Shown here piece by piece: positions 4,798 to 59,745 of a stretch of 64,000 nucleotides of DNA. The position numbers and the translations under genes were made by a program. The notes under the pieces are model-generated. The model was not told the origin of the DNA. It searched no databases and saw nothing but the letters and a program-made list of their open reading frames with translations. Source of the DNA: an uncultured Bdellovibrionales bacterium (GTDB lineage: Bacteria; Patescibacteriota; Minisyncoccia; Moranbacterales; UBA1568); NCBI GenBank assembly GCA_964398485.1, contig CAYNMD010000001.1, positions 5,072 to 69,071 of the forward strand. The letters are read 5' to 3'. Each line of letters begins with the position of its first letter. Position 1 is the stretch's first letter.

Positions 4798-5808
4798 TTA
4801 CTTGGGTGTAACGACATTTTTACATTGGCCCAGGGCGTAGCATTCGATATTATCGATTGTGGTGGAGAGAATGCGTTCGAGTGCTTCTTTGGAATAGAAG
4901 GCAATGTGTGGAGTGTAGACGACATTATCTCGACCGAGAAGGGCGTGGTCCTTGGCGAGCATCTGCAGTTCTGGTGCGCCATCTTGTTTGTTGAGGAGCT
5001 CCTTCTCTTCTCGGACAAGTAGTTCGCCTTCGAGGACATCGATGCCTACTCCAGCGAGTATGCCTTGGTCGAGTCCCATCATGAGAGCATCGGTTTCGAC
5101 GAGTTCACCGCGGGCCGTATTGATGAGAATGGTGCCGGGCTTCATGAGATTGATATTGTGTTGATTGATGAGGTGGTGAGTCTCTTTGGTGTAGGGAGTG
5201 TGCAGAGAAATAATATCTGATGATTCGAGGAGTTTGTGCAGCGGCACATACTGGAAGTCGAGCACTTCGGAGAGAAATTGATTCGGAAAAGCATCGTAGG
5301 CGAGTACCTTCATACCAAAGCCTTTGGCAATTTTGATCACATGGAGGCCAATTTTGCCAGCGCCGACGACTCCGAGTGTCTTGCCTTTGAGATCAAATCC
5401 GCGCAGTCCTTCGATAGCAAAGTCACCGGCGAGTCTTCTCACGTGAGACTTGTGCACATTTCGGGAGAGTGCCAGGATGAGGGCAAAGGTGTGTTCGGCT
5501 ACCGTATTTTCTCCATACGAAGGAACATTGGAAACGAGGATAGCACGTTCTTTGGCAGCTTCGAGATCGATATGATCAAAGCCGGTAGAACGGGTGACGA
5601 TGAGTTTGAGTTTGGGGAGGGCGTGGATGACTTCCGCGGTAACCTTACTGTAAATAAAGACAGAGAGGACTTCGCACTCGGCGAGTGAGGCGAGGTCTTT
5701 TTCTTCGATCGTACGATCAAAGAAAAAAAGCTGATGTCCTGCAAACCGTTCTTTGAGGGTTTCTTCTTCCCACTTTTGGATTTCAAAAAAGGCGAGCTGC
5801 ATAAGCAA
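4798..5808 (-). CDS. D-isomer specific 2-hydroxyacid dehydrogenase (D-lactate/phosphoglycerate dehydrogenase family)
   Basis: NAD-binding GVVGAGKIGLHV, catalytic domain motifs of the D-2-hydroxyacid dehydrogenase family. Confidence 0.85.
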   Translation of the reverse strand: MLMQLAFFEIQKWEEETLKERFAGHQLFFFDRTIEEKDLASLAECEVLSVFIYSKVTAEVIHALPKLKLIVTRSTGFDHIDLEAAKERAILVSNVPSYGENTVAEHTFALILALSRNVHKSHVRRLAGDFAIEGLRGFDLKGKTLGVVGAGKIGLHVIKIAKGFGMKVLAYDAFPNQFLSEVLDFQYVPLHKLLESSDIISLHTPYTKETHHLINQHNINLMKPGTILINTARGELVETDALMMGLDQGILAGVGIDVLEGELLVREEKELLNKQDGAPELQMLAKDHALLGRDNVVYTPHIAFYSKEALERILSTTIDNIECYALGQCKNVVTPK

Positions 5809-7822: not shown

Positions 7823-7896
7823 GGGCGATTAGCTCAGGTGGTTAGAGCGCGTCACTGATAATGACGAGGTCCCAAGTTCGAGTCTTGGATCGCCCA
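7823..7896 (+). tRNA. tRNA-Ile (anticodon GAT)
   Basis: Cloverleaf folded by hand: acceptor GGGCGAT/ATCGCCC, anticodon stem CGTCA/TGACG, loop CTGATAA, T-arm CCAAG-TTCGAGT-CTTGG; no encoded CCA. Confidence 0.85.
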
Positions 7897-7928
7897 CATC
7901 TGGAAGGCAGCGTCCAGAAAGTATATAC

Positions 7929-8002
7929 AGCGGGGTAGAGCAGTCTGGCAGCTCGTCTGGCTCATAACCAGAAGGTCGGTGGTTCAAATCCACCCCCCGC
8001 AA
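7929..8002 (+). tRNA. initiator tRNA-fMet (anticodon CAT)
   Basis: Near-identical architecture to bacterial initiator tRNA (GCGGGG..GAGCAG..CTCATAA..GGTTCAAATCC..CCCCCGCAA); 1:72 mismatch (A x A), A11:U24 in the D-stem. Confidence 0.8.
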
Positions 8003-8072
8003 CAAACTTCGCATTCAGCAGGTGACAGATACTGAGGCATCTTCTCTTGCTTGGCTAAGTTGGGTATAATTT

Positions 8073-8146
8073 GCCAGGGTAGCTCAGTTGGTTAGAGCAC
8101 GGGACTCATAAGCCCGGGGTCGAGAGTTCGAATCTCTCCCCTGGTA
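8073..8146 (+). tRNA. tRNA with CAT anticodon (elongator Met or Ile-lysidine type), atypical
   Basis: Acceptor GCCAGGG/CCCTGGT with G1.U72 wobble, D-arm GCTC-AGTTGGTTA-GAGC, loop CTCATAA, anticodon stem CGGGA/GCCCG with an A31.G39 mismatch, T-arm GAGAG-TTCGAAT-CTCTC. Confidence 0.6.
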
Positions 8147-8162
8147 CTGGGCGAAAATTGAA

Positions 8163-8226
8163 TATCACGGGGGCGTACCCACCCGAACGACTGAGAGCCG
8201 TTCAGTCGGGCGGGGCTCAGCTGGCT
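8163..8226 (+). repeat. partial duplicate of the tRNA-Asp 5' region (ATATNACGGGGGCGTA...GCTCAGCTGG) interrupted by a 37-nt hairpin-forming insert
   Basis: Direct comparison with the start of the intact tRNA-Asp at 8457-8482: about 25 nt identical if the insert CCCACCCGAACGACTGAGAGCCGTTCAGTCGGGCGGG is removed. Confidence 0.6.
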
Positions 8227-8472
8227 ATGTACACTGTTTATGTTTTACAAGATAATCGGGGAAGGTTATACAAGGGCATGACCAATAACCTGGTTCGACG
8301 ACTTGCAGAACATAAAGGGGGTACAACAAAAACTACGCGTTCTATGAAGGATCTGCGTGTTGTATACTCCGAAGAGCATCCCGACAGAGTGTCAGCAAGA
8401 AAGCGAGAGATGTATTTAAAGTCTGCTGCTGGGAGGAGGTTTTTGAAGAAAATTTTATATACGGGGGCGTAG
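8227..8472 (+). CDS. GIY-YIG nuclease superfamily protein (UPF0213/YhbQ-like)
   Basis: YTVYVLQDNRGRLYKGMTNNLVRRLAEHK GIY-YIG motif; ATG at 8227 preferred over the tool's TTG at 8158; stop codon TAG overlaps the first 10 nt of tRNA-Asp. Confidence 0.7.
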   Translation: MYTVYVLQDNRGRLYKGMTNNLVRRLAEHKGGTTKTTRSMKDLRVVYSEEHPDRVSARKREMYLKSAAGRRFLKKILYTGA

Positions 8473-8539
8473 CTCAGCTGGTTAGAGCGACTGCCTGTCA
8501 CGCAGTAGGTCGCCGGTTCGAGTCCGGTCGTCCCCGCCA
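8463..8539 (+). tRNA. tRNA-Asp (anticodon GTC), CCA encoded
   Basis: Acceptor GGGGGCG/CGTCCCC (one G.U), D-arm GCTC-AGCTGGTTA-GAGC, anticodon stem ACTGC/GCAGT, loop CTGTCAC, T-arm GCCGG-TTCGAGT-CCGGT, discriminator G + CCA. Confidence 0.85.
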
Positions 8540-14806: not shown

Positions 14807-14823
14807 ACTATGATGGAGAAAGG

Positions 14824-14897
14824 TGGACCGTATCGGATTCGAACCGATGACCCCCGCTTTGCAAAAGCGGTGCTCTAGCCAACTGAGCTAACGGCCC
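14824..14897 (-). tRNA. tRNA-Ala (anticodon TGC)
   Basis: Reverse complement GGGCCGTTAGCTCAGTTGGCTAGAGCACCGCTTTTGCAAAGCGGGGGTCATCGGTTCGAATCCGATACGGTCCA; G3.U70 Ala identity pair; anticodon loop TTTGCAA. Confidence 0.85.
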
Positions 14898-55850: not shown

Positions 55851-55964
55851 GGAAAAATGCCTTAAGAGAGGCAAAATTATACCCTCTGCGGGAGATATTT
55901 TTTGTGGTATAGTCGAGATAAGTAATCGCCATAGGTGCGGTTATGATTCCTCAAGGAGGATGTC

Positions 55965-56207
55965 ATGGATCGCTTTATTTCCGAGTTCATCCTGATGGGT
56001 CTGGTACTTTTCGCTCTCAAGCAACTTGAACCAGTCGCCCTGCGTCTCTTTGGTGTCTTCTGCAGCTGGGTGGCTAGCTGGCCATGGGTGCAGCACCTCG
56101 AGACACGATGGAAGGCGCGCCAGTTGCGGAAACGAGCAGAGGAAGCTTGGGGTACTCGACAGGCGGCTGATGCCTGGGAAAGACGCTTCGGGAAAGACGC
56201 CTCCTAG
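55965..56207 (+). CDS. hypothetical small membrane protein
   Basis: AAGGAGG 5 nt upstream of the ATG; one TM; preferred over the overlapping minus-strand ORF. Confidence 0.3.
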   Translation: MDRFISEFILMGLVLFALKQLEPVALRLFGVFCSWVASWPWVQHLETRWKARQLRKRAEEAWGTRQAADAWERRFGKDAS

Positions 56208-56317
56208 TCGTCCTCGGAGGACTCTCTCTATACCGTCTTTGGTTTCGATAAACCCGAGGCGGTGTTCTTTTTTGAAAAAGGAAAAAGTGCTAGGATGGGG
56301 GCAATTATTGAAATGGT

Positions 56318-57112: not shown

Positions 57113-57135
57113 CGATCTTCATCTTTGCATTTTAT

Positions 57136-58350
57136 ATGATAAGTACCCCACGAGAGCCTCTGGCAGAGCGGCGGCGTCCTAAGGCGCTCGAGCAGTTTCT
57201 TGGGCAGGAAAAACTTCTGGGCAAAGGGGCCTATTTACGCCAGATGATAGAACGCGATACGGTTCCCTCGCTTATTTTCTGGGGTCCTCCCGGCTCTGGC
57301 AAAACAACTCTAGCGAGGCTAATAGCTTCTGAGACATCAGCTCATTTTGTTTCGTTGTCGGCGGTTACCAGTGGGAAAAAAGATTTACAACAAGTTCTCG
57401 AACAGGCTGACGTGGCAAGGCGTCTTGGAGAACGGACGATTCTTTTTGTAGATGAAATTCATCGTTGGAATAAGGCTCAGCAGGATGCTTTACTCCCTCA
57501 GGTTGAGAACGGTGTCGTTACTCTGATCGGAGCTACGACCGAAAATCCAAGCTTTGAGGTAAATGCTGCTTTACTTTCACGGGCTCGGGTGGTGGTCTTT
57601 ACCAGACATACTGAAGCGACGACAGTAAAACTTCTTCATGACGCTCTCAGAGAGGATATATATCTCAGTAAAAAGGGCATTGTTTGTACTGAAGAGGGAA
57701 TTGGTTTTATCGCCGCTTTATCAGGTGGGGATGCTCGTGCGGCTTATTCTCTCCTTGAGGCAGTAAGCGAAACAGGTAAGGAAATTACACCAGAGCTAGT
57801 GGGCGAAATCGCTGAAAGGTCACATCTTCTTTACGATAAAGGAGGGGAGGAGCACTACAATTTGATTTCGGCACTTCATAAAGCTATGCGAGGGAGTGAT
57901 GCTGATGCGAGTCTCTACTACCTGGCTCGTATGCTCGAGGCTGGTGAGGATCCGCTTTATATAGCTCGGCGCATTGTACGGTTTGCTTCCGAAGATATTG
58001 GCGTGGCCAATTCTTTGGCTCTCCCGCAGGCAGTGGCAGCCTTGCAAGCCTGCCAAATGCTTGGAATGCCGGAGTGTGAGGTACATTTAGCGCAAGCAGT
58101 AGTCTATATGGCTCTTTCCAAGAAATCAAATGCTCTTTATACCGCTTACGGTAAGGCTAAACAGGATGTCAGGGATTATCCTAATGAGCCAGTACCTCTT
58201 CATCTTCGTAATGCTCCCACCAAGCTTATGAAGACTCTCGAGTATGGTAAAGGATACAAGTATACGCCTGACTACAAAAACAAAAAAGAGGCCGAACAAG
58301 AGTATTTTCCTCAGAAGCTAAAAGGGAGAAAGTATTTGTCTCAGGTTTGA
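57136..58350 (+). CDS. rarA: replication-associated recombination protein A (RarA/MgsA AAA+ ATPase)
   Basis: [32 protein letters not shown]-terminal MgsA helical domain. Confidence 0.9.
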
Positions 58351-58365
58351 TTTTTTCGAAAAAAC

Positions 58366-58484
58366 TTTTTTCTCCCTGAAAGAGGATATGTTTGCGGGCG
58401 TGAAAACAACAGGTCTTTTTATGAGTAATGTAACAAGAGAATTTTCTCTTCCTGAAGCAGGATAGCTTTGCGGTCGAGAGAAAT
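58366..58484 (+). repeat. two tandem copies of an approx. 45-nt motif (TTTTCTCYCCTGAARSAGGATAKSTTTGCGGKCGWGARAA)
   Basis: Hand alignment gives about 75% identity between 58366-58411 and 58442-58484; each contains a short CCTG...CAGG hairpin. Confidence 0.5.
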
Positions 58485-58822
58485 TCACTTGTTAAAGTTT
58501 AATTTTGGTTAAAAAAGAATCAAGGCGCTGCGAGTGATATCGCAAGCGCCGAGATAGGAAGGGGTGATCTTGGTCGCGTTGGACCTTAATCGCCATCAGG
58601 ATTCCAAAGACAGTGCCAGACCAGCCTTTCTACAGGCTTTTGTGGTGGTTGTGGAGCGTTTGGTTTATCAGCTTTCACAACTGATGCTTGTCCCTGGAGG
58701 GGTAATGTAGCGACGTGACTCGCGCTACTCACCAGGTGCCGGTATCCCGGATTTTCCATGGCGAGGCGTTCTCGTAAGTTTGCTCCGTTGAGCATCACAT
58801 TCTCCCAATTGTTGCACAAATG

Positions 58823-58864
58823 AAGAAGCCGGTTCCTTAAGGGGGGAGACCGGCTTCTTTTTGC
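58823..58864 (+). terminator. rho-independent terminator with no upstream ORF >= 60 aa
   Basis: AGAAGCCGGT-loop-ACCGGCTTCTTTTTGCTTT. Confidence 0.6.
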
Positions 58865-59057
58865 TTTCGAAAGTGGAATTCTAGCGTCTACATTCAAGGG
58901 CAAAAACAAAACGGTCTCCTTCGCTCCAGAGGAGGAAGGTGCACATAAGACCCATAAAGATGCGACCGTTTTGTTGCATATGGGAAAAGTATAAAAACTC
59001 TCAAAGAGGATGTCAAATAGGTTTTTGGTCATATGAGTATTGTTTTGGAGTAATTAT

Positions 59058-59086
59058 TTGACATACCAAAAAAAGTGTGTTACCAT
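59058..59086 (+). promoter_or_regulatory. sigma70-like promoter TTGACA-N17-TACCAT
   Basis: Motif about 110 nt upstream of the 59195 ORF. Confidence 0.3.
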
Positions 59087-59194: not shown

Positions 59195-59458
59195 ATGACG
59201 GATCAACGATTGGGCGGATTCTGCCCGCGAGTACTTGGGGCTTTTCTGCTCAAGGCGGAGGCTTTTCTTCGGAGTTCGGAGAGTGTCTATAGCGGCCTCC
59301 TCAAGATCGCCGAAGAGGTGGCGGCATACAACTTGGCCTATGCGACTGTCCTCATCAAGATGGCCCGGGGTTCCCCCCTCTGCCAAAGCTGGTTCTTCTA
59401 TGCTTTCGAGAAGATGGTCTACACGGCGATGGCTTCTCCGAGTCGGTTGAAATCATGA
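59195..59458 (+). CDS. hypothetical small protein (first of two translationally coupled ORFs)
   Basis: TAGGAGA 8 nt upstream of the ATG; 87 aa; stop overlaps the next start (ATGA). Confidence 0.35.
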   Translation: MTDQRLGGFCPRVLGAFLLKAEAFLRSSESVYSGLLKIAEEVAAYNLAYATVLIKMARGSPLCQSWFFYAFEKMVYTAMASPSRLKS

Positions 59459-59640
59459 AGTCGAAGCTCACAGAGGATGAGGCTTGGCGACTCGCTCGAT
59501 TGATCGCTGGTCTGAAGCGTGCCGGAAGAGGTGCCAAGGCCACAAGGCTTTCCGCGATGCTTCAACCGCTAGCCTGTAGGCGTTTCAAGCCTTCCAATAG
59601 CCATGGCGTCAAGACCCGTCTGAGGACCCGCCCTCGCTAA
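59455..59640 (+). CDS. hypothetical small basic protein (second coupled ORF)
   Basis: ATGA overlap with the upstream ORF; 61 aa, Arg/Lys-rich. Confidence 0.3.
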   Translation: MKSKLTEDEAWRLARLIAGLKRAGRGAKATRLSAMLQPLACRRFKPSNSHGVKTRLRTRPR

Positions 59641-59745
59641 CCTGTACGTTCTCGGCAAGGCCCGAGATCAAGAGACCCTGCTGCGCATTGTCGTGGTAGG
59701 GTCTCAAAATTTTTTATGCTACACTAAGGTCTGAACTTTTTATTT

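Follow-up and report, generated by a model that had tools for sequence, protein, structure and literature searches.

A predicted lineage-specific RNA stem-loop beside xth and rarA in a subclade of Moranbacteria

Genes and small features around rarA

The window, a 64-kb stretch of DNA, carries rarA in the gene order miaB-xth-rarA-gap-bcp-pepA, which is conserved in relatives. RarA (Pfam RuvB_N, AAA, AAA_assoc_2, and MgsA_C, as assigned to an identical protein) is closest to proteins named Candidatus Moraniibacteriota or Moranbacteria, a lineage of the candidate phyla radiation (CPR), and its homologs are named RarA of Candidatus Moraniibacteriota. The relatives used for comparison are contigs, designated by L numbers, with RarA proteins 72 to 92% identical to that of the window. 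Across these loci, the gap between rarA and bcp measures 0.46 to 1.8 kb. A Shine-Dalgarno sequence is absent ahead of rarA (57113 to 57135 in the window) in every relative, and a conserved TTTTGATATTTGATTT block precedes the ATG wherever the xth-rarA spacer is long (L086 to L094). The 470-nt gap between miaB and xth (55851 to 56317) contains a conserved 80-amino-acid (aa) open reading frame (ORF; 55965 to 56207) with a weak LapA_dom match, which is called in several relatives. At gathering score, Rfam matched five tRNAs over the window and nothing else. A four-tRNA cluster (Ile-GAT, two Met-CAT, and Asp-GTC) is located at 7823 to 8539, and tRNA-Ala lies on the opposite strand at 14822 to 14897.

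The rarA-bcp stretch of the window, 1.4 kb without annotated function, contains four conserved small genes, the products of which had no matches in Pfam, NCBIfam, or PADLOC (Table 1). Two of them form a minus-strand operon convergent to rarA, and both hexamers of its strong promoter are conserved in relatives. The first gene, sORF1, is apparently leaderless, as judged from the spacing of its start codon to the promoter, and has orthologs of 32 to 34 aa with synonymous changes in 10 loci; it is unannotated and matches no family. The second, ORF2, has a conserved N terminus (ML.GAN.RE.LAME) and C terminus (L[IV]WH[CS][LI]W[ND]..D) around a variable, Pro-rich middle, a layout that resembles that of a precursor peptide. 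Its homologs span 189 to 210 nt, all multiples of three (L085, L087, L088, L091, and L101), and are predicted by gene callers in L085 and L087; in the window strain, the callers merge ORF2 into a spurious 148-aa ORF (58586 to 59032). Two database homologs of ORF2 were found, and no family. A type I toxin-antitoxin reading of the minus-strand operon was considered and is not established. For the 270-nt conserved stretch at 58556 to 58822, RNase P, 6S, SRP, and tmRNA were rejected, as neither Rfam nor ARAGORN gave a match and the stretch holds the minus-strand ORF instead. The first-pass annotation had proposed a 48-codon, GTG-initiated ORF on the plus strand (58564 to 58710), preceded by AGGAAGGGG. 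This ORF exists but is not conserved: stop codons occur in all three plus frames in L086, L087, L088, and L091, and the ORF is antisense to the 3' part of ORF2.

The other two small genes are the overlapping 87-aa and 61-aa ORFs on the plus strand, which the divergent promoter drives and which end at a canonical terminator. Homologs are present in L091, L097, L087, and L102, and they are fast evolving and GC richer than their surroundings. Two natural deletion variants indicate that the small-gene module is dispensable: in L099 (4207 to 4663), the deletion extends from the rarA stop codon as far as the -10 box of the plus-strand promoter, and in L097 (4210 to 5048), sORF1 and most of ORF2 are missing.

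Two further hairpins frame ORF2. The one at 58524 to 58550, previously listed as a strong hairpin, is indeed strong (folding energy between -21 and -19 kcal/mol; minus strand, -19 kcal/mol with z = -5.9; plus strand, z = -3.7), but its assignment changes, since it belongs to what appears to be the intrinsic terminator of the two-gene minus-strand operon. Nine loci retain its stem and T-tract, and the stem varies in a compensatory way, from GCGA/TCGC to GCGG/CCGC (L088 and L094) or to GTGA/TCAC (L097). Read on the plus strand, the stem-loop leads into GAGAUAGG, which contains no U-tract. The hairpin at 58823 to 58859 folds on both strands (-25.7 kcal/mol on plus and -23.9 kcal/mol on minus), and the block GAGACCGGCTTCTTTTTGCTTTCGAAAGT is near invariant in eight loci. 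An invariant U-tract, CTTCTTTTTGCTTTCGAAAGT, stands on the plus strand (58823 to 58876). Transcripts of rarA may thus continue past the motif described below and past the minus-strand terminator, run antisense to ORF2, and end at this U-tract. The hairpin is probably the terminator of such plus-strand transcripts and, on the minus strand, a hairpin between the two cistrons.

Table 1. Positions of rarA, the hairpin element, and neighboring features in the window
Feature	Position	Strand	Remarks
rarA (replication-associated recombination protein A)	57136..58350	+	Stop TGA, 58348-58350
Hairpin element copy 1	58351..58422	+	Degenerate, "type B-like"; conserved part 58359-58406
Hairpin element copy 2	58431..58494	+	Intact, "type A"
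Copy 2 basal stem	58431-58448 with 58476-58494	+	
Copy 2 CC/GG pairs	58451-58452 with 58472-58473	+	C58471 bulged
Copy 2 apical stem	58453-58458 with 58465-58470	+	UGAAGC with GCUUUG
Copy 2 loop	58459-58464	+	AGGAUA
Convergent operon terminator (predicted)	58510..58550	-	Stem-loop 58550-58524, then UUGAUUCUUUUUU
ORF2, unannotated 69-aa gene	58586..58795	-	Shine-Dalgarno GGGAG, 58806-58802
Hairpin between sORF1 and ORF2	58823..58859		11-nt perfect arms; plus-strand UUUUUGCUUUCG after
sORF1, conserved 32-aa protein	58881..58979	-	MQxIGxxFMGFMxxFxxWxxGDRFVFALERxR; ATG 8 nt past -10 box
Minus-operon promoter	58988..59016	-	TTGACA, 17-nt spacer, TATACT; 11/12 consensus
Divergent promoter	59058..59086	+	TTGACA, 17-nt spacer, TGTTACCAT
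Two small overlapping ORFs, 87 aa and 61 aa (basic)	59195-59458 and 59455-59640	+	Conserved structured leader
Canonical terminator	59672-59705	+	3' of the 87-aa and 61-aa ORFs

The repeated stem-loop downstream of rarA

Immediately downstream of rarA, a direct repeat of 48 nt (58359 to 58406 and 58435 to 58482) shows 75% identity between its units, with a start-to-start distance of 76 nt. The shared pattern CCTGAANNAGGATANNTTTGCGGNCG matches exactly twice in the 64-kb window. Among 100 shuffled sequences it has no match, even with up to three mismatches allowed, so the repeat is real and nonrandom. The first-pass annotation had reported a tandem, structured-RNA-like motif here, together with the strong hairpin and the ORF treated above; all are present at roughly the coordinates given there, and the motif recurs in related genomes with compensatory changes. 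The motif has no match in Rfam, either at gathering score or at E ≤ 10: between 58200 and 59250, Rfam 15 returned only chance eukaryotic models at the latter threshold. The stem-loop near xth and rarA is previously undescribed and belongs to no known family.

The conserved fold is one long, irregular, unbranched hairpin with an apical and a basal stem. The apical helix of 8 bp, interrupted by one bulged C, stands above a small asymmetric internal loop; as given by RNAalifold on 11 distinct copies, it consists of the CC/GG pairs and of UGAA(GC or CG) with (GC or CG)UUYG, closing a loop A-N-G-A-U-A. This hexaloop, the bulged C, and a UC bulge are the unpaired conserved residues. The basal helix is AU rich and 15 to 20 bp long, and its sequence varies among the copies while complementarity is kept. 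Two apical pairs swap jointly between GC and CG; copies are called "type A" or "type B" accordingly, and the two types occur together in most genomes. The covariation between the types may stem from no more than a few evolutionary events in some eight genomes.

Several measures bear on this fold. With the apical fold and five extra pairs, 88% of the alignment cells are standard paired, compared to 37 to 58% when the 3' partners are slid, and none of 500 shuffles matched the observed apical pairing or covariation score. With the basal stem added, to a total of 25 pairs, the model has 78.5% of the cells paired versus 42 to 55% when slid, with changes on both sides at 14 pairs, figures that come from an alignment fitted to the model and hence biased toward the structure. 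The arms were also checked independently, by duplexing the 30-nt flanks of each copy with its own partner and with those of other copies. Own arms form duplexes at -13.7 kcal/mol on average and others at -8.0 kcal/mol, and the own arm ranks first in 8 of 14 copies, the failing ones being those that look decayed. The two window copies illustrate both outcomes. Copy 2 (covariance model [CM] score, 78.7 to 83.3 bits) folds at a minimum free energy (MFE) of -23.9 kcal/mol (z = -3.9), contains a bulge, an internal loop, and approximately 27 pairs within its 64 nt, has 14-nt arms that are 93% complementary, and ranks first with its own arms; the hairpins L087_dn1 and L094_dn1 are longer still. Copy 1 (67.5 bits) retains a recognizable core, with damaged apical pairs (AG/TG replacing CG/CG) and a poor basal stem. 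It has lost two apical pairs and folds no better than its shuffles (MFE, -11.2 kcal/mol; z = +0.4), and its own arms rank 11th of 14.

The motif is accordingly best described as a predicted lineage-specific RNA stem-loop of approximately 65 nt, conserved in sequence and structure. This longer predicted hairpin, and not the short CCTG/CAGG hairpin originally drawn within each unit, is the fold backed by compensatory changes in relatives. The mini-hairpin can be drawn, but covariation does not support it, and several intact copies cannot form it fully: of 11 copies, 5 have the fourth pair disrupted and 2 have the second.

Conservation and covariation also bear on the strand and on selection. The 37-nt core is 76 to 89% identical between genomes in which rarA four-fold sites are only 27 to 41% identical, that is, essentially saturated, which places the core under purifying selection. 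One U.G pair is invariant in all 11 copies, and additional G.U pairs are present. In the RNAalifold pair table, nonstandard apical cells number 5 of 88 on the plus strand versus 25 of 88 if the minus strand is assumed. Both the invariant U.G pair and the smaller number of broken cells favor an RNA of the plus strand, in the same sense as xth and rarA. All CM matches likewise fall on the plus strand, at 56 to 83 bits, with the reverse strand at 20 to 26 bits. Single-sequence folding does not discriminate between the strands, as the MFEs and z-scores of the minus strand are as good as those of the plus strand.

This similarity of folding energy is one of two features expected of an element acting as DNA, in which a single-stranded hairpin or cruciform would mark a recombination or cassette boundary around rarA; the other is that direct hairpin repeats flank rarA in L086, L087, L094, and L102. 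We regard such a role as very improbable. The invariant U.G and G.U pairs become A.C mismatches on the complementary strand, and duplex DNA would have no reason to keep them. Moreover, no recombinase was found nearby by Pfam on the called genes, and rarA occupies the same syntenic place in all relatives.

Occurrence and decay among relatives

A fuzzy search and two CMs located the motif only on the plus strand and only adjoining rarA. It lies downstream of rarA in the window (two copies), L085 (two copies), L086, L087, L091, L094, and L102 and within the xth-rarA spacer in L086, L087, L094, L099, L102, and L104; the same searches did not find it in L088, L097, L098, and L101. Relatives thus have zero, one, or two copies downstream of rarA, and loci with the motif have one to three in total. 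The copies are positioned 0 to 8 nt past the stop codon of xth or rarA, always on the sense strand, and the element of the window starts 8 nt past the rarA stop. A SECIS or read-through signal was rejected, given that the rarA stop codon differs among relatives (TGA, TAA, and TAG). Window copy 1, L085_c1, L091, L087_dn2, and L094_dn2 are degenerate. The tandem arrangement of the window is therefore not conserved: the number downstream of rarA varies, and some copies lie upstream of it.

Beyond these loci, the motif was absent from rarA loci of other species among the best 80 RarA matches listed, which in genome contigs derive mostly from distant phyla and reach 70% identity at best. A degenerate-core search of viral contigs gave no matches, and a metagenome match to the conserved 22-nt block (L090) proved to be an unrelated chance match. 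The element is restricted to one subclade of Moranbacteria and tied to the xth and rarA junctions; it is dispensable and patchy in occurrence.

The order of the hairpin types differs between the window (degenerate B and then A, 58351 to 58498) and L085 (A and then B, 5209 to 5360). These are the two closest genomes, and their orthologous flanks suggest gene conversion or parallel compensatory change between copies.

Copy number changes, positional shuffling, and decayed copies make a small palindromic repeat of the REP or MITE type the main rival to a functional RNA. Such a repeat would spread or duplicate locally and then decay, its pairing following from its own palindrome and serving no host function. 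The one to three copies per locus, several of them degenerate or truncated, fit this explanation, as do the swapped A/B order between the window and L085 and the absence of the element from sister genomes. Type B copies lie upstream of rarA in L086, L087, L094, L099, and L102 and downstream in L085, and those at different positions can share the same arms (L085_c2, L087_up, and L087_dn2). However, CM searches with filters off found no further copy in the remainder of the 64-kb window, nor did CM searches in approximately 0.8 Mb of other loci; all copies have a single orientation, and no transposase or RAYT Pfam family is present among the called genes within 10 kb on either side. In addition, orthologous type A cores at the same site are near identical while their arms have diverged with compensation and neutral sites are saturated, which argues for vertical inheritance under selection. 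On balance, we consider a selfish repeat unlikely, though it deserves serious weight.

A possible role at mRNA 3' ends and comparison with known systems

The position of the copies bears on the proposed tandem riboswitch aptamers or any other ligand-sensing cis-regulator. Sequence conservation that extends to unpaired positions would suit a riboswitch, and in some relatives one copy lies 22 to 25 nt upstream of the rarA start codon. However, the hairpin is unbranched, with no junction or pocket-like core, and lacks an Rfam match even at E ≤ 10. Both window copies stand 3' of rarA and face the convergent terminator, so they have no downstream gene on the same strand to control; moreover, the copies differ in number and position among relatives, one of the two in the window has decayed, and there is no expression platform. 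The riboswitch reading is thus largely refuted by position, and we give it almost no credence. The alternative suggestion, a repeated regulator-binding site, may hold, since the loop, the bulge, and a U.G pair are conserved in sequence.

We tentatively favor, at somewhat less than even odds, a hairpin recognized by a protein or an RNase that defines or stabilizes mRNA 3' ends. The proposal builds on the repeat, its conservation, fold, and strand preference, its position, and its neighbors, from which we infer transcription, recognition by a protein or RNase, and a stabilizing or processing role. The element would act at the RNA level, as punctuation in the 3' untranslated region (UTR) or between cistrons, on the sense strand right after the rarA stop codon and, in relatives, after the xth stop codon within the xth-rarA spacer. 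A specific protein or double-strand RNase would recognize the long hairpin, which would set and protect the 3' ends of both mRNAs, xth and rarA. On the plus strand, the convergent terminator is the next feature after the hairpin, and the conserved plus-strand terminator follows 300 nt further. The coding part of rarA would be kept intact, and the remaining 3' UTR would run antisense into the convergent small-gene operon, to end at the terminator at 58823 to 58865.

The conserved loop, bulged C, UC bulge, and U.G pair argue for a trans-acting recognition partner. Copy 2 offers at least about two turns of double-stranded RNA and the internal loop that characterize RNase III substrates, and its shape makes it a possible candidate for RNase III cleavage. 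Against a 3'-end role, conservation of the loop sequence would be superfluous in a mere barrier to exonucleases, the element is patchy and dispensable with several degenerate copies, and single-sequence folding leaves the strands inseparable.

The same position could suit a weak or conditional terminator or attenuator for xth and rarA that limits read-through into the convergent operon and would tune antisense RNA against ORF2. The hairpins lie directly past stop codons, there is otherwise no plus-strand terminator before 58823 to 58865, and U-rich sequence follows some copies (window copy 2, AAGUUUAAUUUUGG; L086_dn, AUUUUUAAU; L094_dn1, CAUUUUGUUUG). However, the stems are AU rich (GC content, 0.31 to 0.44), the U-tract is inconsistent and missing in L087_dn1 and L085_c2, and a consensus terminator scan made no call; on these grounds, a canonical intrinsic (rho-independent) terminator was rejected. 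Canonical terminators with GC-rich stems occur nearby in this organism, and attenuation would leave the conserved loop and bulges unexplained. We therefore judge a conditional terminator improbable. Somewhat more doubtful still is a broader proposal, in which the element would coordinate xth and rarA in this CPR lineage, either as the site of an RNA-binding regulator or by switching termination or processing conditionally, and would also gate rarA read-through antisense to the leaderless microprotein operon.

Some of these features would also be expected if the hairpin were the body of one or two independently transcribed small RNA genes, which we consider quite unlikely. The hairpin and its loop are stable and conserved, some copies have U-rich tails, and the conservation stands out from the surrounding spacer. 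Yet a promoter scan found no promoter-like site upstream, and with hairpins 0 to 8 nt past the stop codons, any promoter would be expected within the xth or rarA gene itself. The region showed no target complementarity.

If the hairpin is a processing or protein-binding site, as in the reading we favor, it would open a way to study how mRNA 3' ends form and how sense and antisense transcripts overlap in these reduced genomes. A coordinating role would, if true, make it a new posttranscriptional regulon element, in organisms for which hardly any RNA regulation has been described; to our knowledge, almost nothing is known of RNA-level gene control in CPR bacteria, and a literature search on Patescibacteria or rarA-associated RNA motifs found nothing specific. 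In either case, a small noncoding element stands under purifying and compensatory selection beside two DNA repair genes. Its general importance is probably limited by its narrow range and dispensability.

Among known systems, the hairpin resembles the RNase III sites of phage T7 early mRNA (R1.1 to R5) and similar processing or stabilizing stem-loops between cistrons: it is long and irregular, of approximately 27 bp in total with an asymmetric internal loop, and lies between or after cistrons on the sense strand, with related copies at several junctions. If it remained at the 3' end, such a hairpin would protect the upstream message. The element is only a candidate for such cleavage. Conservation of the apical loop does not define the T7 sites, and the element belongs to a CPR bacterium and not to a phage.

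Like REP/BIME, ERIC, BOX, and Correia elements, the motif is an imperfect palindrome in transcribed spacers just 3' of stop codons, and it shares with them the multiple copies, some decayed, and a possible stabilization of upstream mRNA. It differs from these elements in having only one to three copies, all beside rarA and in one orientation, in lacking a 5' GTAG and any RAYT gene seen, and in orthologous copies that change compensatorily under selection.

The hexaloop with a conserved A1, the AGGA in most loops, and the tandem hairpins in the window recall ANTAR targets and CsrA/RsmA sites, both of which were rejected on loop sequence. An ANTAR target combines two short neighboring hairpins, each with a hexaloop that has A1 and G4; here, the conserved G is at loop position 3 and not 4, the stems are long, the copies lie 76 nt apart, and in some genomes there is only one. 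A CsrA/RsmA site presents GGA in the loop of a short hairpin, whereas several intact copies have the loops AAGAUA (L086_up and L099_up) and AUGAUA (L094_up, L102_up, and L104_up). The string CCCUGAAGCAGG, which forms the mini-hairpin discussed above, resembles boxB of the lambda nut site (GCCCUGAAGAAGGGC). Unlike boxB, the mini-hairpin does not covary and is broken in intact copies, and neither a boxA nor a phage context accompanies it. The element is thus a narrowly distributed addition to the general class of conserved extragenic stem-loops.
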